Below are positions 10,660 to 20,095 of a stretch of DNA of 64,000 nt, piece by piece. The DNA is from an uncultured Acidimicrobiaceae bacterium (lineage in GTDB: Bacteria > Actinomycetota > Acidimicrobiia > Acidimicrobiales > Bog-793). The stretch spans positions 247,454 through 311,453 of the forward strand of contig CAWJBM010000002.1 of the NCBI GenBank assembly GCA_963841155.1, in the 5' to 3' direction. The position numbers were made by a program, and so were the translations under genes. The first letter of the stretch is position 1, and each line of letters opens with the position of its first letter. A model generated the notes under the pieces. That model was given only the letters and a program-made list of their open reading frames with translations. It was not told where the DNA came from and did no database searches.

Positions 10660-10870
10660 GACTACGCGGCGGCTTGGTACTCGTGGATGATCCCACCCAG
10701 CACGTCGCGACGGCCGATGTCGCTGAACGATGAGGCAGCAGAGGTCACTGCGCTGAGTGGTGCGGGCACTTGGAGTCGAAGGCCGAGGTGAGGCCGATGC
10801 TGGTTGTAATGCCGGACGTAGTCGCGAAGGACGGCTTCGAGATGGGGACGGCCGAGAACGAGCGTGTTGG
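10660..10870 (-). pseudogene. C-terminal remnant of a second rve-type transposase
   Basis: Minus-strand translation: ..TLVLGRPHLEAVLRDYVRHYNQHRPHLGL...RRDVLGGIIHEYQAAA*. The upstream limit is ambiguous because it abuts or overlaps the IS256 remnant. Confidence 0.65.
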
Positions 10871-11344
10871 GTGCATAAATCCGCCAACATCCTCGATGCC
10901 CTGCCCAAATCCATCCAGCCGCTCGCGAGGAAGATGCTCGCCAAGGTGAGAGACGCCGAGGACCGTGAACATGCCCGAGACGCCGCCAAGGCCTTCGACA
11001 ACGAGTTCCATGCCAAGTGGCCGAAGGCCGCCGAAAAGCTCCGCGACGACCTCGAGCCGTTGTTGTGCTTCTTCGACTTCCCCGCCGAGCACTGGGTGCA
11101 CCTGAAGACCTCGAACCCGATCGAGTCGACCTTTTCGACCGTGAGGCTCAGGACAAAAGTGACCAAGGGCCCGGGCTCGCGAGCTGCCGGGCTCGCCATG
11201 GCCTTCAAGCTCATCGAGGCCGCAGAGGACCGCTGGCGTTACGTCAACGGTGCCGCGCTCGTCGCTCTCGTGCGCGCAGGTGCAACGTTCCGAAAGAGGG
11301 TATTGGTCGAGACCGTTGCGAAACAGGAGGAGGTCGCCGCGTGA
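10853..11344 (+). pseudogene. IS256-family (Mutator-type) transposase, C-terminal fragment
   Basis: ..RACWVHKSANILDALPKS..EFHAKWPKAAEKLRDDLEPLLCFFDFPAEHWVHLKTSNPIESTFSTVRLRTKVTKG.. is the conserved IS256 C-terminal half. The N-terminal half is absent. Confidence 0.8.
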
Positions 11345-11776
11345 TCAGCGGGTCGGGCCGATCCACAACTTTTGACTATTCCTCTCAGCCAACGCTCCGA
11401 GACCTGTACGGTCGTGGTCCGACTGCCACTTTTGCAAGGTCTCCGGCGGGTAGTCGTGAGGTCTGATGCGATCGACGAGGTCGTGGTGGGGCTTGCAGAG
11501 CAGCACCACGTTTGCGTAGGCGGCTCGTTTCTCATCTGACATATTGGGGTCGTACCGAGCGGAGTTCGGCTTCGCACCCCGGATGTGCGAGATGTGCACG
11601 TTGACGACCGGGACACCCTCCGCGAACTCGATCACCGGTCGATGGCATCCGGGGTAGTAGCAGGTGCCCTGCGAGAGGGCGAAGAGCGCTTTCTCCGTTC
11701 CGCTTCTGTAGTCACGGGGCCCGGGCATCGGCAAGCAGTCTACGGAAACCCTGTGACTGCCTTGCCTCGTGCTCAT
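11345..11776 (-). CDS. HNH endonuclease
   Basis: 143 aa. CYYPGCHRP....VHISHIRGAKPNS.RYD....NVVLLCKPHHDLVD is a His-Me finger pattern. Confidence 0.75.
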   Translation of the reverse strand: MSTRQGSHRVSVDCLPMPGPRDYRSGTEKALFALSQGTCYYPGCHRPVIEFAEGVPVVNVHISHIRGAKPNSARYDPNMSDEKRAAYANVVLLCKPHHDLVDRIRPHDYPPETLQKWQSDHDRTGLGALAERNSQKLWIGPTR

Positions 11777-13390: not shown

Positions 13391-13447
13391 CCGGAGTTTG
13401 GCGCGACTTTCGCGTCGTTCCAGGTAGATGAGGTCGCGGAAGAGACG
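13391..13447 (-). mobile_element. Terminal 57 bp of an IS1634/IS4-like remnant (copy A), separated from the rest by the IS21 insertion
   Basis: The reverse complement continues the alignment of 19608..20095 with copy B (33040..33531) through ..CATCTACCTGG.ACGAC..GAAA..CGCGCCAAACTCCGG. Both copies lose similarity at that point, which marks the IS end. Confidence 0.7.
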
Positions 13448-13609
13448 TGTCAACGGCCAGTTTGTGGTACCCACTGGTGGCCAGCAAAAGTACCCACCCC
13501 TCTTGGTGCTTTGCTTTGACGATCGCGGTTCATTTCCTTGATTCAGATCGTCTGTGCCGGCGAGCGGCCAACCCTTCGATCTCGGGCTGACCGCAACACC
13601 AGCGAGCTC

Positions 13610-14098
13610 TCAGATGCTGTCGCTCACCTCCTTTGCAGCCGTCTCCGTCGTCGGCGCTCCACGCGGCAGTTTCGCCCCGGCAGATCGCTGGCGTGCCTCT
13701 TTCATGCGGAACGACTCGCCGTCGGTGACAACGACGATTCCGTGATGCAGGAGTCGGTCGAGCATGCTGACCGCCGTCGTGTGCTCGGGCAGGAACCGGC
13801 CCCACTGGTCGAAGGGCCAGTGGCTGCCGATCCCGAGCGAGACGCGCTCGTAGGCCGCTGCCACGAACCGGAACAGCAGCTGTGCACCGGCGTCATCGAG
13901 CGGGGCGAAGCCAAGCTCGTCGACGATCACGGCGTCCGCACGGAGGATCTGCTCGATCACCTTGCCGACGGAGTTGTCTGCGAGCCCTCGATACAGCGTC
14001 TCGACGAGCTCGGCCGCGGTGAAGTAGCGCACCCGCTTTCCCGCTTCGACGGCGGCATGGCCGAGGGCGATGAGGATGTGGCTCTTGCCGGTGCCGGC
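13610..14098 (-). pseudogene. istB: istB, C-terminal part (from the Walker A motif onward)
   Basis: Begins AGTGKSHILIALGHAAVEAGKRVRYFTAAELV..AVIVDELGF.. (Walker A and B of the IstB AAA+ helper). Confidence 0.85.
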
Positions 14099-14423
14099 AG
14101 AGATAGCGACAGACTGCAACATCTTCGGCAATCACTGCCGTGCGAGGTACGCGTCACGGCGCCTACGCACCCGTTGTTCGGCCGCCTGCTTCGAGCATCG
14201 GGGTTCAGGCGGCGCAGCGGCGTGCTGCTGCTCGTGGTGGATCTTCCCGATGGAACGCCGGGCACGATTCGCGCCGACGCCACCAACGCGTTCGTGGATG
14301 CGGTCGCCGATGTCCCTTTGACGGTCCTTTCGGTCGAAGGAATGCGCCAGCTCCGCCGGCTGACCGCCGCGCTGGTGATTGCCTGGTCGCGTGATCGTCG
14401 TGTCCGGAAGGACCGAGGCGGGA

Positions 14424-14660
14424 ATGCGTGACGCTTCTGACCGGCGTGCGAGGGAGGCGTTCTCGTGCGAATCGTGCGGGCGGTTCATCGTCACGGCCGT
14501 CGAAGGCCTGTTCCGCAACTCTCGGGTGGGGTCTAGAACCCGCTTCTGCTCGCCGAGCTGTCGACAGGCCGCCTATCGCCGCCGTCGTGCCGGCGTCGAC
14601 GAGAACGCGCCTCGCCAGCGCAAGGGCGGACGAGGGCGACGCCTCGGCGAGCGGCCGTGA
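14424..14660 (+). CDS. Small zinc-ribbon-like protein
   Basis: MRDASDRRAREAFSCESCGRF....RFCSPSCRQAAYRRRRAG, a C-x2-C ... FCS-x2-CRQAAYRRR motif. The ATG overlaps the stop of an upstream open frame. Confidence 0.5.
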   Translation: MRDASDRRAREAFSCESCGRFIVTAVEGLFRNSRVGSRTRFCSPSCRQAAYRRRRAGVDENAPRQRKGGRGRRLGERP

Positions 14661-14827
14661 TCTCCCGAGTTCTCGCATGAGACGTCGGGTCAGAGCCAGT
14701 TGGCAGAGCGGCGATGACGTGTCTGGCGTCGATGCCAGGTGTCATCTCGCCGCCGACGGCGGTCCGCGACCCTCCCCAGACGCGCAAATAGGCTCGACCG
14801 ACCCTGTACGCGCCAACGAACTGGGAG

Positions 14828-15013
14828 GTGAGCCTTTTGCGAAGGCTCAGGATAGCCGCGCCCACTCAGCTGCCCCTGGATCTCGACGGGGTGGCCCCGA
14901 CACCGACACAGCGGTGGTCGATGTTGCCCGAGACCGCACGCGAGCGCGTGCTCGTGCTGCTCGCCCGCCTCATCGCCCGCGGGGTGCTCGACAAGGAGGA
15001 CTCCGATGAGTGA
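14828..15013 (+). CDS. Small accessory ORF overlapping the recombinase start
   Basis: 61 codons with a GC3-rich coding look. Its stop TGA 15011-15013 overlaps the recombinase ATG 15006 (ATGAGTGA). The start codon is uncertain. Confidence 0.45.
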   Translation: MSLLRRLRIAAPTQLPLDLDGVAPTPTQRWSMLPETARERVLVLLARLIARGVLDKEDSDE

Positions 15014-17336
15014 CCTGTTGTCCAAGCTGACGCCGGGCCACCTCGGCCGCGACGCCTACATCTACGTGCGCCAGTCGACCCTCACCCAGGTCCGCGAGCA
15101 CACCGAGAGCCTCGAGCGCCAGTACGAGCTCGCCGATCGCGCCATGAACCTCGGCTGGCAGCCGCGCCAGGTGGTCATCGTTGACGAGGACCTCGGTCGT
15201 TCAGGCGCCGAGGCGACCGCCCGGGAGGGCTTCAAGGGACTCGTCGCCGACGTCGGTCTCGGGAAGGTGGGGATCATCTTCGGGATCGAGGTCTCCCGCC
15301 TCGCCCGCAACAACGCCGACTGGTACCAGCTCCTCGATCTGTGCGCCATGACCGACACGCTGATCGCCGATGGGGACGGGCTCTATCACCCGGCCGACTT
15401 CAACGACCGGTTGGTGCTCGGGCTGAAAGGGACGATGTCAGAGGCTGAGCTCCATCTCATCCGTCACCGGCTCACGGCCGGGCTGCGGCACAAGGCGGCC
15501 AAAGGTGAGCTCCGCCAGGGGGTGCCCGTCGGTTACTGCTACGACGCCGATGGCCGTATCGTGATGGACCCCGACGAGTCCGTGAGAGCGGCGATCGCGA
15601 GCGTGTTCCGGCTCTTCGACGAGGTCGGCACCGCCAGGCAGGTGATGTTGGTGATGCAGTCCGACGGGCTGCTCGTGCCTCGACGGCCGACGGCCTCGCG
15701 CCGGGTCACCTGGGCCCGGGCCAGCTACCCGTCGATCCACGACTTCCTTACCAATCCCACCTACGCCGGCGCGTTCGTGTTCGGCCGCACCCGCACCGAG
15801 AAGCGGCTCGACGAGAACGGTCGCCTTGTCGTGCGCACGCGTCAGGTGCCCCGCTCGGAGTGGGAGGTTCTGATCCCCGACCACCACGCCGGCTATGTCT
15901 CCTTCGAGCGCTACGAGGCGATCCAGGACGAGCTGCGCGCCAACTGGCACCCGCCGAGAGGCGAAGGGGGCGGTCCCGCCCGCGAGGGCACGGCGTTGCT
16001 GCAGGGCCGTCTGCGGTGCGGTCGGTGCGGGCGGATGATGCAGACCGGCTACTCGGGGGCGAAGGGCAACTGCCCGCGCTATGTTTGCGGACGGGCGCGC
16101 ATGCTCTATGGGAGCGAAGGGTTCTGCCAAAGCCTCGGTGGCAGGCGCCTGGAGCAGCGCGTGCTCGACGAAGTCTTCGCCGTTCTCGAGCCGGCGGCCT
16201 TGGCAGCGACGGCCAAAGCGCTCGAGGAGGCGGAAGCCCTTCACGCCAAGCGCCTTTCGGCTTTCGAACTCGCGGTGGAGCGTGCTCGCTTCGAGGCCGA
16301 TCGGGCTCGCCGCCAGTTCGACGCTGTCGAGCCAGAGAACCGGCTCGTCGCCCGCACGCTCGAGGCCGCCTACGAGCAGGCGCTCGTGGCGCAGCGACAA
16401 GCCGAGGCGGATCTCAGCGTCCAGCGTTCTCGTCAGCCGACGAGACTGACGAGTGAGGAGCTCGCCTGGGTCGCCCGGGCAGGAGCCGACCTGCGTGCGG
16501 TCTTCGACGCTCCGACGACCACGTACCGGGAACAGAAGCAGCTGCTCCGGGCGGTCGTGGCAGAGGTCGTCGTGACGGTGCGAAAGGACGATCGTGAGGC
16601 CGACCTGCGCATCATCTGGGAGGGCGGTGCGACGACGGAGTTCGTGATGACGCTCACCAAGATCGGTGGTCACTTCCGCACGACCGACGAGGACACCGTC
16701 GATCTCGTGCGCCGCCTGGCCGCCCGCTACGACGATGCCACCATCGCCGTCATCCTCGCTCGCCAGCATCGCCGCACTGCCAGCGGGCTCACGTTCACCA
16801 AGACCCGCGTGGCGAGCCTCCGGGTGTCCAGGCAGATCGCCGTCTTTCGACCCGAGAGTGTCACACCCACCGACGATGATGTCGTCGTGGTCGGAGTCGG
16901 CCGAGCAGAGCAGATCCTCAGGGTCTCCAGGTCCACGATCTACCGGTGGCTGCGCGACGGGTTCATTGCCGGCGAGCAGCTGACCGCAGGGAGTCCCTGG
17001 CACCTCCGCATCGATGCCGCCATGCGGGCCAAGGTGGTTGCTGAGGTTCCCGAGGGTTGGGTCGACCTGGACCGGGCGGCAATCGCGCTCGGCGTGGCCC
17101 GCCAGACGGTGCTCGACCGCATCCGTCGTGGTGAGCTTCGAGCGGTTCACGTCAATCGGGGCCGCCGCCGAGGCCTCGCCATCGAGATCGCACCGCAGGG
17201 ATCAACGAGGCTCTTCGAGAACGCGCCGGTTGGGGGGCCGAACCGAGTATCAAACGGTCCAGATGGGACCATGCGAGCAGGCAAAGCCATCAGGTCAGGC
17301 CGAAAACACCAGCAACCGCTGGGGTCTTTGGGCTGA
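15006..17336 (+). CDS. Large serine recombinase
   Basis: 776 aa. N-terminal resolvase domain AYIYVRQSTLTQ..SLERQ (catalytic Ser), recombinase domain, Cys-rich zinc-ribbon (CGRCGR...CPRYVC), coiled-coil, and a C-terminal HTH-like repeat (STIYRWLRDG; ARQTVLDRIRRGEL). Confidence 0.9.
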   Translation: MSDLLSKLTPGHLGRDAYIYVRQSTLTQVREHTESLERQYELADRAMNLGWQPRQVVIVDEDLGRSGAEATAREGFKGLVADVGLGKVGIIFGIEVSRLARNNADWYQLLDLCAMTDTLIADGDGLYHPADFNDRLVLGLKGTMSEAELHLIRHRLTAGLRHKAAKGELRQGVPVGYCYDADGRIVMDPDESVRAAIASVFRLFDEVGTARQVMLVMQSDGLLVPRRPTASRRVTWARASYPSIHDFLTNPTYAGAFVFGRTRTEKRLDENGRLVVRTRQVPRSEWEVLIPDHHAGYVSFERYEAIQDELRANWHPPRGEGGGPAREGTALLQGRLRCGRCGRMMQTGYSGAKGNCPRYVCGRARMLYGSEGFCQSLGGRRLEQRVLDEVFAVLEPAALAATAKALEEAEALHAKRLSAFELAVERARFEADRARRQFDAVEPENRLVARTLEAAYEQALVAQRQAEADLSVQRSRQPTRLTSEELAWVARAGADLRAVFDAPTTTYREQKQLLRAVVAEVVVTVRKDDREADLRIIWEGGATTEFVMTLTKIGGHFRTTDEDTVDLVRRLAARYDDATIAVILARQHRRTASGLTFTKTRVASLRVSRQIAVFRPESVTPTDDDVVVVGVGRAEQILRVSRSTIYRWLRDGFIAGEQLTAGSPWHLRIDAAMRAKVVAEVPEGWVDLDRAAIALGVARQTVLDRIRRGELRAVHVNRGRRRGLAIEIAPQGSTRLFENAPVGGPNRVSNGPDGTMRAGKAIRSGRKHQQPLGSLG

Positions 17337-17387
17337 CCTGGACCGAATGATCAAGTCGATGAAAGGAAAGCGCAGTGTCAACCATGT

Positions 17388-17728
17388 CCGGCCGGCCCCA
17401 CAAGGCACGGGTTCTCCCGGGCATCGATCCACTCGAGCGATGCCAGGTAGTCAAAGGTCCCCCGTGGGATCGAGGAAGCGTGCACGTCGAAGTCCTCGAG
17501 CGACTTCGAGACGGGAAAGCGTGCTTGTTTCAACCTCGCCATCGCGTTGGAGGCGTCCCTGCTCTCGATCTCGGCTTCGACGAGGGTCCGCAGCAGCTCC
17601 ACCGGCGCCCAGCGCTGGGTCTTGGCGACGGCGAGGACATCGGGCCCGATGCGGCGCATGGTGGCGAGCTTGAGACGCCGCAGGCCTGCCACGAGATCGG
17701 CGGGCAGCTCGGCCGGCGGGGCGCTCAT
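17388..17728 (-). pseudogene. istB: istB, N-terminal part
   Basis: MSAPPAELPADLVAGLRRLKLATMRR...FDYLASLEWIDARENPCLVGPAG, then runs into the cassette. The ATG overlaps the stop of the upstream small ORF (ATGA). Confidence 0.85.
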
Positions 17729-17988
17729 GAGGTGGTCTCCATGAGCCGGCGGGCGAAGTGCAAAAGTGCCGAGCGAAGCTCGCACACGCCGTAGCCGGGG
17801 GCATATGCCTGCATGGCCGCGTGCATGAGTCGGGGCTCGGCCTTCAACCAGCCGGCCACGAACTCGAGCATCTCGGCGCACTCGTATCTCTCCTCGGGTG
17901 CGAGCACCTTCGAGCTTTCGGGGCCATCGACATGCTCGACGCCCTCCTCGTTCGGATCAAGCCCGGAGCTTCCCTGCGGCGGGGTCAT
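17725..17988 (-). CDS. Hypothetical 87-aa protein encoded between istA and istB
   Basis: GC3-rich codon usage. Its ATG 17988 overlaps the istA stop (ATGA) and its stop overlaps the istB ATG 17728 (ATGA). No family recognised. Confidence 0.6.
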   Translation of the reverse strand: MTPPQGSSGLDPNEEGVEHVDGPESSKVLAPEERYECAEMLEFVAGWLKAEPRLMHAAMQAYAPGYGVCELRSALLHFARRLMETTS

Positions 17989-19445
17989 CGGAGCTCTCCG
18001 AAGCCGTAGGCGGACAGGGGCCTGGTGGGAACTTCGGGGAAGGCGGCACTGAGCGGCTCGCCGACCGCCTGCAGGCGGGGCACACCCGCGCCGGCATCGA
18101 GGATGGAGCGCACATCGGCGAGGGAAAAGCGCGAGTAGGTGGTCGCCCGCTCGAGTGCACAGATAAGCGCGTCGCGTCCGTAGGCGCTCTCGAGGGCCAC
18201 GATGGCCCCGAGCTCGCCGCCGAGCTTGCTCGCACCGCCCGCCGCCGCGGCCTTCAAGAACGCCATGCCCACCTCGCCGAGACCGACCATGGCGTGCTCG
18301 GCCGCGGTACGAGGCCGGGGCGCCCGCTGCGGTAGAGGCCGCGGACCGCCATAGTGGTCGTCGTTGATGGACGTCTCACCCGGTGCCACGAGATCGTGCA
18401 AGGCCATCTCGACGCCGAGATGCACGACGGCGAGCTTGCCGCCGGCGACCTCCACCTCGACCTGCTTTCCGATGAGGCGCATCGGGACCGAGTAACGGGC
18501 CGAGCCGAAGCGCACGCAGCTGAGCTTGTCCACCTTTCGGATGACCGCCTTTGCGACGCGGGGGCGCAGCGACGGCAACGGGGAGAACAGCGGTGCTTCG
18601 ACCCTGAGCCGCTCGGTGGGAATCGCACAGATCTCCGAGTGCTCGACGCAGTTGACCTCCTCGCACCACGCGGCCGCGGCGACATTGGCCGAGGCGAGGT
18701 CGAAGAACGGGACCTGCGGGACCATGAGGTCGGCCTTGGCGTAGCCCACGAGGTTCTCGACCAGTCCCTTCGACTCCGGGTCGTTGGCCTCGCAGAAATC
18801 CGGCCGGAAGCGATAGTGGGCGGCGAAGCGGACGTAGGCCGGTGTCGCCACGACGAGGTTGGCCACCACGCCTGCTTTGAGGCAACCCATGCGATCGGCC
18901 AGCACCACCTTCGGCACCCCGCCCAGGAGCTCGAAGCAATCGATCAGCATCGAAAGCGTCGTGTCGGAGCGCTCGTTGTCCGAAAAGCGCACAAAGCGCC
19001 ACCGGCTCCAGGCCGACACCGCACAGAACACGTGCAGGCCGAACTCCGAGCCCCAGTCGATGACGAGTGTCTCGCCCGGGCTCCAGATCGCCGGGCGCCG
19101 TCCCCGGTGGTGCTCGTCGCGCCAGTCGCTCTTTGTCCTGGCGACAAGACGTCGGAAGTTGCGGGCCGAGCCGGTGTAGCCGGCGGCGCGTGCCTCGGGC
19201 AGGAGACGCTTGGCCGAGATGCGCCCGCTCGTCTTTCTCACCTTGGTGGCCACGATGCCCGCGACGACGTCGTAGTTCCTCTTGCGCTCGGCCGCCTTGT
19301 CTTGAGTCGCGTCCCGTTCTTCGCGTTTGAGCACTGCACGCTTCACGGTCCGGTGCGTCGTGTTGCAGATTGCTGCGGCGCCCCGGTAGCTGCCCACCTC
19401 TCGGTAGGCGGCGATGATGTCCATTGTCTGCCTCACTGATTTCAT
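17985..19445 (-). CDS. istA: IS21-family transposase IstA
   Basis: MKSVRQTMDIIAAYREVGSYRGAA.. (HTH) followed by an rve-type core ..VIDWGSEFGLHVFCAVSAWSRWRFVRF... I chose ATG 19445; the listed ORF extends further 5'. Confidence 0.9.
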   Translation of the reverse strand: MKSVRQTMDIIAAYREVGSYRGAAAICNTTHRTVKRAVLKREERDATQDKAAERKRNYDVVAGIVATKVRKTSGRISAKRLLPEARAAGYTGSARNFRRLVARTKSDWRDEHHRGRRPAIWSPGETLVIDWGSEFGLHVFCAVSAWSRWRFVRFSDNERSDTTLSMLIDCFELLGGVPKVVLADRMGCLKAGVVANLVVATPAYVRFAAHYRFRPDFCEANDPESKGLVENLVGYAKADLMVPQVPFFDLASANVAAAAWCEEVNCVEHSEICAIPTERLRVEAPLFSPLPSLRPRVAKAVIRKVDKLSCVRFGSARYSVPMRLIGKQVEVEVAGGKLAVVHLGVEMALHDLVAPGETSINDDHYGGPRPLPQRAPRPRTAAEHAMVGLGEVGMAFLKAAAAGGASKLGGELGAIVALESAYGRDALICALERATTYSRFSLADVRSILDAGAGVPRLQAVGEPLSAAFPEVPTRPLSAYGFGELR

Positions 19446-19607
19446 GGTTCTGTCCTCCGGTCGGAGCGGTGTTTGGTTGGCACCGCCACCGTGTCCGGCC
19501 GGAGGGCACGAACGGTGGATGTTCAGTGAGGGGTGGGTACCTCTACATGGCCACGAGTGGGTACCTCGTCCTGGCCACACGCGGGTACTTTTTCATGGCC
19601 ACGGACA

Positions 19608-20095
19608 AGACGTGTCCCCCTACGCGTGAGCTGAACGCCCTGGTCAGGCGATTTCGGCCTTGGACCAGGTCGAGGTGTCGACGGAGAGGGCCCGGAGCAC
19701 CTTGGCCTAGAGGGCGCTGCGCCGGTTCACGAGCTTGATCTGGCAGTCGCCGGCGGAGATGTGCTGTAACCGGACCTCTTTCAACACCGAGAGGGCCCGC
19801 CGTGGCGTCATCGACTGGAAGGCCAGGTTGGGATCGGTCAGCTTCGCGTTCACGAGGTCTTGTGCCATGACGGCCTCGATGGTGGCCGCTAGCACGCAGA
19901 GCGCCACGTGTCCGCGCACCCGGGCCTCGGTCCAGTGGAACATCGGCCGCAGCGACAAGAAGTCCCTCATCACCCGGAAGCGGCGTTCGATTGACTGCAG
20001 GCTCTTGTAGTAGCGCAGCACCTGGGCGGCAGAGGCCTCTGAAGTCGTCAGCGATGTCGTGATGACGAGGCGCCCGAAAGGAACAGGTCAGGAAC
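19608..20095 (-). pseudogene. IS1634/IS4-like transposase 3' remnant (copy A)
   Basis: ORF 19707..20021: LRYYKSLQSIERRFRVMRDFLSLRPMFHWTEARVRGHVALCVLAATIEAV... is the C-terminal DDE-E region. DNA-level homologue of 33040..33531 in inverted orientation. The right limit is approximate. Confidence 0.7.

Follow-up and report, generated by a model that had tools for sequence, protein, structure and literature searches.

The 64,000-nucleotide (nt) stretch of contig CAWJBM010000002.1 analyzed here, referred to below as the window, comes from an uncultured Acidimicrobiaceae bacterium (assembly GCA_963841155.1) and contains an IS21-like insertion sequence in which istB, the gene for the helper ATPase, is split by a cassette of 3289 base pairs (bp). 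We put the probability at roughly 0.85 that this cassette is a small autonomous integrative element with a large serine recombinase as its only enzyme. The recombinase would join the ends of the element into a circle carrying attP, and attP would recombine with an attB that consists of the DNA encoding the Walker A loop of IstB-type ATPases, with strand exchange at a 2-bp sequence (NN) and with no DNA duplicated. Insertion would split and inactivate istB, while precise excision would restore it. An element with this target would avoid host genes and ride along when its IS21 transposes, and it would find sites in very different IS21 elements, since the Walker A motif is the best-conserved stretch of a multicopy gene.

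The interrupted istB gene and its intact relatives

The cassette breaks istB between the codons for GPA and those for GTGKS, and the 5' fragment of the gene reads ..ENPCLVGPAG before it hits a stop codon. The sequence CCGGC is present at both junctions, at positions 14094-14098 and 17388-17392, which are 3294 bp apart and have 3289 bp (14099-17387) between them. When the sequence ending at 14098 is joined to the sequence starting at 17393, an open frame is obtained that reads ..ENPCLVGPAGTGKSHILIALGH.., and the repaired gene has 275 codons from the ATG including the stop codon, encodes 274 amino acids (aa) and has its GPAGTGKS motif restored. These features agree with the initial annotation of the window, as does the presence in the cassette of a gene for a 776-aa serine recombinase, a small overlapping open reading frame (ORF) and a zinc-ribbon ORF.

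Over its full length, the repaired IstB shows 95% identity to P0121, a database protein, and it contains no other lesion (database proteins are numbered with P; loci and contigs are numbered with L). Intact IS21 copies that encode P0121 were found in four metagenome samples, on at least four contigs (L082-L085), and are 91-93% identical to the window at the nucleotide level. These copies align to the window from 19607 to 17388 and from 14098 to 13448. In the intact copy, the overlap between the two alignments is exactly 5 nt and reads GGGACCGGCCGGCACCGGCAAGAGC, with a single GCCGG at the insertion point. These are the empty istB alleles that the initial annotation had proposed to look for, and each carries the single CCGGC that was expected at this position. 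Because the intact relatives hold a single core and the same type of junction was found in 55 distinct pairs of junctions (see below), the junction of the cassette is not due to chance.

Recurrence at one codon and the predicted position of the crossover

A scan of one genome per species identified 80 loci with recombinases 56-85% identical to that of the cassette (81 with the window), from Acidimicrobiia, Mycobacterium, Nocardioides, Pseudonocardiaceae and others. In most of these loci, tblastn placed the C-terminal part of IstB 5' of the recombinase gene, beginning at about residue 112-114, and the N-terminal part 3' of it, ending at about residue 116, with every IstB match in the 81 loci antisense to the recombinase. 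The IstB flanks of divergent loci were under-called by tblastn alone, which was solved by anchoring on the end motifs of the element and translating the repaired junction. The consensus sequence is ..GA..GCGACAGACTGCAACATCTTCG for the left end and GAAAGGAA.GCGCAGTGT(C/T)AACCA...CCG for the right end. Both ends are present in 60 of the 81 loci, which yield the 55 distinct junction pairs. Anchoring on the end motifs and deleting the element plus one 5-bp block restored an in-frame Walker A motif in 49 of the 55 pairs, e.g., GP/AGTGKSH, GP/PGTGKTH, GP/VGVGKTF and GD/SGTGKSH, where the slash marks the junction.

As many as 39 of the 44 distinct target C-terminal parts are IstB_IS21 sequences, which are 21-83% identical to the IstB of the window. 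Other targets that were hit at the Walker A motif are a relaxase-type AAA_30 ATPase (L053/L078) and an AAA_22 ATPase (L060), and only two of the 55 pairs are located in genes without this motif (L049, in lgt, and L046, which is outside the set of 44 targets). It follows from the non-IstB targets that the specificity is for a DNA sequence, and that IstB is where this sequence most often occurs. The initial annotation had left it to the flanks of homologous recombinases to tell whether such cassettes are repeatedly found at the same codons of istB or at unrelated sites with no shared core. The flanks are repeatedly inside istB at the same codons, also where IstB is as little as 21% identical, and this recurrence in the IstB of diverse IS21 elements supports the suggestion made there that the element is a parasite of IS21.

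The five positions of the block are identical between the left and the right junction in 44, 53, 39, 46 and 38 of the 55 pairs, respectively, as compared to only 6 and 10 pairs for the positions just outside the block. At the right junction, the block starts with three bases of the element, which read CCG (TCG in one subfamily). The third base is a constant G on the right and variable on the left, where it is the wobble base of a host codon. The base that follows the block belongs to the element on the left, where it is specific to the subfamily, and to the host on the right. The last two bases vary among insertions, with at least eight dinucleotides represented (GG, AC, GC, GA, CT, GT, TG, TC). 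The two sides agree in 37 of the 55 pairs, a number that was not reached in any of 10,000 permutations (mean 12.2). Two copies that are 100% identical (L048 and L049) share the sequence from the first base after the left block through the third base of the right block. In addition, ACTGC of the left end (complement GCAGT) and GCAGT of the right end are mirror images that lie equally far from the dinucleotide, and the dinucleotide in attB is flanked by CCG and CGG, with a consensus on the recombinase strand of cTTgCCggtn-CCg-NN-cggnCC.

These patterns point to a crossover of 2 bp, which in the window would be the GC at 14097-98 and 17391-92, and which would correspond to the first two bases of codon x in G-P-x-G-x-G-K-S/T. 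By comparison of the junctions, the exchange is most simply read as conservative, with a 2-bp overlap and without a target duplication, which is the site geometry of serine recombinases. The 5-bp repeat of the window would then consist of the 2-bp crossover and a CCG that attP and attB happen to share. The initial annotation had taken the repeats for attL and attR with a common core of 5 bp; the two att sites hold, whereas only the last 2 bp of the core behave as a crossover. Placing the crossover within the CCG or just after the block was rejected, since the third base follows the host on the left, where it varies, and is constant in the element on the right, and since the next base is element-specific on the left.

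A 5-bp direct repeat could also have been produced in another way, namely if the cassette were a passenger of a DDE-type transposase acting in trans, with CCGGC as a target-site duplication and the recombinase as nothing but resolvase or invertase cargo. The repeat flanking the cassette has the right length for this, in that the host IS21 itself makes 5-bp duplications. However, neither a transposase gene nor terminal inverted repeats of the transposon type were found in the cassette, and co-variation is confined to the last 2 bp of the block, with the other three bases following the element on the right and the host on the left. Furthermore, these 3 bp lie outside the boundaries of identical copies on the left but inside them on the right, and insertion takes place at a single codon of a single motif, in genes whose proteins are as little as 21% identical. 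We consider this explanation to be very improbable.

At one locus (L040, DATDKW010000326.1), the left flank (about 1-75) is the reverse complement of the right flank (after 3436), and both represent the 5' side of istB, which points to an inversion or to recombination between copies in opposite orientations. This locus also has an element region that exceeds the usual length by about 560 bp.

Gene content, mobility and a gene split across the ends

The gene content of the element is limited to a gene split across its ends (orfJ, see below), an optional zinc-ribbon ORF, a 61-aa ORF and the recombinase gene. All genes of the cassette are located on the plus strand (Table 1). The recombinase contains the Pfam domains Resolvase, Recombinase, Zn_ribbon_recom and HTH_17, and is predicted to catalyze the exchange. 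Its catalytic domain (PF00239, residues 17-168, E 2.7e-19) includes the Arg-x-Ser nucleophile motif, PF07508 (195-312) and PF13408 (331-390) each score above the cutoff, and a C-terminal extension of about 300 aa contains two excisionase-like helix-turn-helix units (635-655, 691-721), of which the second coincides with an NCBIfam excise domain. At least 7998 relatives were identified in a protein search, and the nearest named relatives among the NCBIfam and PDB matches, XisF, SprA/YokA and CcrA, are all weak, with the match to XisF sub-threshold and far below the cutoff of this model.

The 61-aa ORF has tblastn matches in about 70 loci with 45-83% identity, always just 5' of the recombinase gene, and the arrangement recurs on proteobacterial plasmids. 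No family match was obtained for it in Pfam and NCBIfam searches, and it is a candidate for a directionality or regulatory factor. Candidates for a recombination directionality factor are thus the 61-aa ORF and orfJ, neither of which matches a known family. The zinc-ribbon ORF overlaps the orfJ stop codon by 8 nt and was seen in only four of the examined loci (the window, L024, L030 and L033); it is the main reason why the window copy is 3.3 kb, as compared to about 2.8 kb in most relatives.

The conserved gene orfJ, with a product of about 110 aa, was missed in the initial annotation. Its frame is the best-conserved one in the left 330 bp of the element and opens at the first base after the block without a start codon of its own. 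A Shine-Dalgarno sequence (17362-17369) and a GTG start codon (17375-17377) are instead located in the right end, in the order GAAAGGA, 7-8 nt, GTG, six codons and the block. L046, L050 and L057 have ATG in place of the GTG, and in typical elements the Shine-Dalgarno sequence overlaps the stop codon of the recombinase gene. Matches to orfJ were identified by tblastn in 73 loci, with 58-70% identity and E values down to 1e-39. Joining the ends of the window copy gives an orfJ of 116 aa, and in the 60 loci with both ends the joined-end frame is uninterrupted, with a length of 103-188 aa, in all of the 47 distinct products, because the spacing of the end motifs is constant. The entropy is 1.2-1.3 at third codon positions, as compared to 0.56-0.82 at the other positions. 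The possibility that this region is a mere binding site for the recombinase was rejected, given the codon periodicity beyond the first 45 nt and the conservation of the protein over 100 residues.

The split layout of orfJ is also present in proteobacterial clades with recombinases that are 40-48% identical to that of the window. There, orfJ matches Pfam DUF5372 (with E 4e-22 in L100 and just above the gathering score in L099 and L094), a family that is not mentioned in the literature searched. Identities of 27-40% in tblastn and a shared location within the element link these homologs to orfJ of the window, which we regard as a probable distant relative of DUF5372. No match was found for orfJ of the window itself in Pfam and NCBIfam searches. 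The AlphaFold model of this protein, with a predicted local distance difference test (pLDDT) score of 83, has a small SH3/Tudor-like barrel between two helices, the second of which is long; no structure in PDB reached E 0.001, and no function is suggested by the fold. As judged from the sequence, orfJ would be supplied with translation signals of its own only at joined ends, and its product may report the excised state, for example by favoring re-integration. Such completion of a gene at the joint resembles the joint promoters of circular insertion sequences.

The element has moved recently. Element-only identity is 99.75-100% between copies in different targets of one genome (L015/L062, L044/L045, L048/L049, L051/L052), where the targets are different IstB types and in one case IstB and lgt. 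A metagenome contig (L081) contains a copy that is 99.7% identical to that of the window, with an identical recombinase protein and another IstB (..GVGKTY) as the left flank; the contig is short, and therefore possibly an assembly chimera. By seeking orfJ proteins with an N-terminus encoded by the right end, we identified joined ends in two metagenome contigs from other samples (L090, L091), in which the 3' end of the recombinase gene is followed by AACCA, 15 nt, GCGA(C/G)AG and orfJ, with the spacing as predicted. These joints come from a circle or a tandem array. The set of att sites thus consists of attL and attR in the window, attB in L082-L085 and attP-type joints of related elements in L090 and L091.

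The element is also carried along by its host. At two chromosomal sites in OY970155.1 (L010/L011), the whole 5.3-kb composite of IS21 and element is 99.92% identical, with separate 5-bp duplications (AACCA, CGCGT) and the same unusual mismatched junction pair. The composite was duplicated with target duplications of its own, and the IS21 has therefore transposed with the element inside. The IS21 with its broken istB was presumably mobilized by IstB supplied in trans.

Could the window copy be a dead relic that is unable to excise, so that the locus is simply a disrupted IS21? Its excised form was not found in attP scans of the JGI metagenome collection, and its recombinase has a deviating C-terminus, with 776 aa as compared to the usual 740-744 aa. 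On the other hand, all ORFs and both end motifs are intact, the repaired istB is lesion-free and 95% identical to its intact relatives, the copy in the metagenome is 99.7% identical and has another left flank, and the 776-aa variant recurs in L015, L017 and L069. We find it unlikely that the copy is a relic.

Several observations weigh against the interpretation of the cassette as an active element that integrates by site-specific exchange. Large serine recombinases normally use one central dinucleotide, and a mismatch blocks the reaction. In the elements studied here, there is no one fixed dinucleotide that is identical in attP and attB, since the left and right dinucleotides differ in 18 of the 55 pairs (L005, L009, L010, L014, L018, L019, L026, L033, L036, L040, L043, L046, L047, L051, L054, L058, L062, L067), in conflict with the identity required by the classical rule, and the 100% identical elements in L048 and L049 have different dinucleotides (GA on both sides and AC on both sides, respectively). 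Where close IstB relatives suggest the host codon, the mismatched pairs are of both polarities, with the left side host-like and the right side element-like in L018, L062 and L054, and the reverse in L036, L010 and L026. The mixed junctions match what would result from replication of a heteroduplex overlap after a mismatched exchange, and recombination between copies could give the same result. Either mismatch-tolerant exchange or later recombination between copies would be needed to account for the differing dinucleotides. The dinucleotide of the window, GC, is moreover palindromic and cannot alone set the orientation, yet the orientation is uniform.

Other such observations concern the circular form and orfJ. 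An exact pattern scan for attP in the JGI metagenome collection gave no matches, and a relaxed scan gave four, all of them chance matches with no recombinase nearby. In L090, only a 0.5-kb recombinase fragment is present 5' of the joint, where it adjoins an unrelated gene, and this joint may represent a tandem remnant or an assembly chimera. Activity of the window copy is suggested by its intact ORFs and by the 99.7% identical second copy. A promoter scan of 13900-17600 identified no promoters, with the sigma-70 consensus being a poor model for this organism. Finally, the orfJ frame of integrated copies stays open into the target, antisense to it, where the His codon of GK[ST]H provides an in-frame start codon (CAT read as ATG, CAC as GTG) seven codons 5' of the junction. 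Gene callers start the integrated orfJ at this target-donated M or V (P0249, P0258, P0266, P0285, P0293 and others). A variant orfJ protein may therefore be made in the integrated state, and orfJ is perhaps not strictly circle-specific.

The host of the element has the characteristics of the IS21 family, with istA (rve) followed by the gene for the AAA+ helper IstB, multiple terminal repeats and a short target duplication. Its termini are TGTC..GACA, three 24-nt terminal repeats are present at one end (19533-19604), and it is flanked by a 5-bp duplication, AGACG (13443-13447 and 19608-19612). The mechanical ORF for istA corresponds to 531 aa, as compared to the 479 aa called in L082-L085. Between istA and istB there is an 87-aa ORF (17725-17988, minus strand), an unusual third gene for an IS21-type element, which was called as a gene in all four intact relatives and for which no Pfam match is on record in L082-L085. 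Other apparent remnants of mobile elements, as judged by eye from the ORF translations only, are located nearby at 10757-11344 (plus strand), 11345-11776 (minus strand) and 19707-20021 (minus strand). They resemble a C-terminal fragment of a transposase (..PAEHWVHLKTSNPIESTFSTVRLR..), an HNH-like ORF and a second transposase fragment that directly adjoins the end of the IS21.

Table 1. Coordinates in the window of the proposed integrative element, its ends and the IS21-like host.
Feature	Position	Strand	Evidence or remark
Host IS21-like insertion sequence	13448..19607	-	Aligned with intact relatives L082-L085; inverted and direct repeats at the termini
istB 3' part, TGKSHILIALGH.. to stop codon	13610..14093	-	IstB_IS21 profile positions 101-237, E 8.7e-37
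attL junction block CCGGC	14094..14098	.	CCG (14094-14096) is host sequence: Gly codon and Ala wobble base
Left end of element (predicted attP P' arm), AGAGATAGCGACAGACTGCAACATCTTCG	14099..14127	+	Conserved in 71/81 loci
orfJ body, RDSDRLQHLRQSLPCEVRVT.., stop TGA at 14429-14431	14099..14431	+	tblastn
Accessory zinc-ribbon ORF (CxxC..FCSxxC), 78 aa from ATG at 14424	14424..14660	+	Weak zf-FCS match, below cutoff
61-aa ORF, overlapping recombinase start by 8 nt (ATGAGTGA)	14828..15013	+	tblastn
Large serine recombinase, 776 aa	15006..17336	+	Pfam; catalytic motif YVRQSTLTQ (Ser24)
Right end of element (predicted attP P arm), ..GATGAAAGGAAAGCGCAGTGTCAACCATGTCCG	17355..17390	+	Conserved in 68/81 loci
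attR junction block CCGGC	17388..17392	.	CCG (17388-17390) is the right arm of the element
istB 5' part, codons 1-113, ending ..ENPCLVGP	17393..17728	-	IstB_IS21 profile positions 3-104
istA transposase of host IS21	17985..19580	-	rve and Mu-transpos_C_2 domains

Related clades and known systems

Elements with more distant recombinases were identified on plasmids of Proteobacteria. Recombinases that are 46-48% identical to that of the window are encoded on plasmids of Bradyrhizobium, Mycetohabitans, Pseudomonas putida (pDK1, pWW53) and P. mandelii (L092-L096: NZ_CP147709.1, NC_014124.1 pDK1, NZ_CP005961.1, NZ_CP062169.1, NZ_CP088103.1). These elements share the gene set of the window element and resemble it at the left end (CGACAGACTAC), and they split a group II intron reverse transcriptase at the motif ..(F)FD/xIxH. 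The reverse transcriptases are 28-45% identical to a reference reverse transcriptase from L076, a member of a Solirubrobacterales clade (L076/L077) with recombinases 56-57% identical to that of the window, in which the L076 element splits the reverse transcriptase near its N-terminus. In a third clade, with recombinases 40-42% identical to that of the window and members in Skermanella (L097, pTT6-1), Bradyrhizobium betae (L099, pBbPL7HG1) and Paraburkholderia sabiae (L100), IstB is split at the same Walker A codon (GAT/GLGKSW), and the leftover 5' fragment of istB is annotated by RefSeq only as “ATP-binding protein”.

Taken together, we lean slightly towards the view that the clades form a large superfamily that spans phyla, made up of serine-recombinase elements that carry no cargo and reside obligately in other mobile elements. 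In such a superfamily, the attB of each clade would be the coding DNA of a catalytic motif that its host element cannot change, i.e., the Walker A motif of IstB in Actinomycetota and in Alpha- and Betaproteobacteria, and the ..FD/xIxH motif of reverse transcriptase in Proteobacteria. The ring-closed gene order would be common to all clades, with a DUF5372-type gene that is completed only at the joined ends, and non-identical crossover dinucleotides would be tolerated, which would loosen a rule that is regarded as absolute among large serine recombinases.

The initial annotation knew of no description of an element with such an attB, which is nearly right. Full-text literature searches returned no description of this element family, and the sole hint is one sentence, with accompanying tables, in a study based on TIGER, in which disruption of IstB_IS21 is listed among the candidates for regulated gene integrity and the targeting is not analyzed (Mageeney et al., 2020; PMC7192596). 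The tables of that study include a 3960-bp element inside IstB of M. vanbaalenii (NC_008726.1, 4164723-4168682), as well as a 4-kb element in clpB of “Nmu1”. According to these tables, the M. vanbaalenii element resembles ours in being small (about 4 kb) and in having an attB, ..ATCGGCCCAGCCgGCACCGGTAAGTCC, at the same GPA/GTGKS position, but it differs in having two tyrosine integrases and unrelated ends. With a tyrosine-integrase element listed at the same site, it follows that at least two recombinase families have converged on GPA/GTGKS.

The listing of IstB_IS21 in PMC7192596 raises the question of whether the element is a “regulated gene integrity” switch, kept for holding IS21 off and restoring istB to the benefit of the host or the insertion sequence, which would not be mutually exclusive with parasitism. 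Precise removal does restore an intact istB, and the closest NCBIfam model, although its match is far below the cutoff, is XisF of the Anabaena fdxN developmental excision element. However, near-identical copies in different IS21 types of one genome, together with occasional copies in lgt, in a relaxase-type ATPase and in an AAA_22 ATPase, look like spread rather than regulation. The interrupted IS21 still transposes, and sister clades target a group II intron reverse transcriptase. A switch of this kind is in our opinion unlikely.

As an integrative element, the cassette can be compared to SPbeta with SprA in spsM, the skin element with SpoIVCA in sigK, and the Anabaena fdxN element with XisF. 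These elements are also located inside coding sequences, their precise conservative excision restores the gene, and their recombinases have the same three core domains. They are single-copy, usually large and prophage-derived, confined to one locus of one species and tied to the development of the host, whereas our element is 2.8-3.3 kb, without cargo and multicopy, and recognizes the motif-coding sequence of a gene family of another mobile element. In Tn4451/Tn4453 (TnpX) and Tn5397 (TndX), the recombinase is likewise the sole mobility enzyme and there is a circular intermediate. Lyras and Rood reportedly found in 2000 that the joint of the Tn4451 circle creates a promoter for tnpX, which is the same logic as in orfJ, except that in our element a coding sequence is completed at the joint and not only a promoter. 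The TnpX and TndX transposons differ from our element in carrying resistance cargo and in having a fixed GA crossover and a loose target choice; in our element the dinucleotide varies and no accessory or resistance genes are present.

Elements of the IS607 family are also minimal, moved by a serine recombinase and without target duplication. Their transposases have about 200 aa, are not very selective in their targets, contain neither a recombinase nor a zinc-ribbon domain, and carry the helix-turn-helix on the N-terminal side of the catalytic domain, whereas our recombinase has 776 aa, with the catalytic domain at the N-terminus and the helix-turn-helix units at the C-terminus. The C-terminal helix-turn-helix matches the transpos_IS607 model with E 0.0025 and only 17 bits, as compared to a cutoff of 110. 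By its sequence features, the family is best described as site-specific serine-recombinase elements with an unusual target class, gene layout and crossover tolerance. What appears to be new is a gene split across the ends, a variable and at times differing crossover dinucleotide, and distant clades on proteobacterial IstB or on group II intron reverse transcriptase.

The elements represent a widespread family of mobile DNA that resides within other mobile DNA and is essentially undescribed. They provide a clear and abundant case of a mobile element specialized on another, and their survival is tied to one sequence that the host element cannot mutate. Genomes contain several copies, and the carriers include Actinomycetota from soil and peat, Mycobacterium, and plasmids of rhizobia and Pseudomonas. 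For annotation, they explain many genes for “recombinase family protein” that adjoin truncated IstB fragments labelled “ATP-binding protein”. Large serine recombinases are prized for site-specific integration in genome engineering, and an attB that is short, degenerate and constrained by a protein, with several dinucleotides apparently accepted, would suit the study of relaxed site choice and of the dinucleotide rule. The split orfJ is a compact candidate for telling the integrated from the excised state, which is a live question for serine integrases and their directionality factors.

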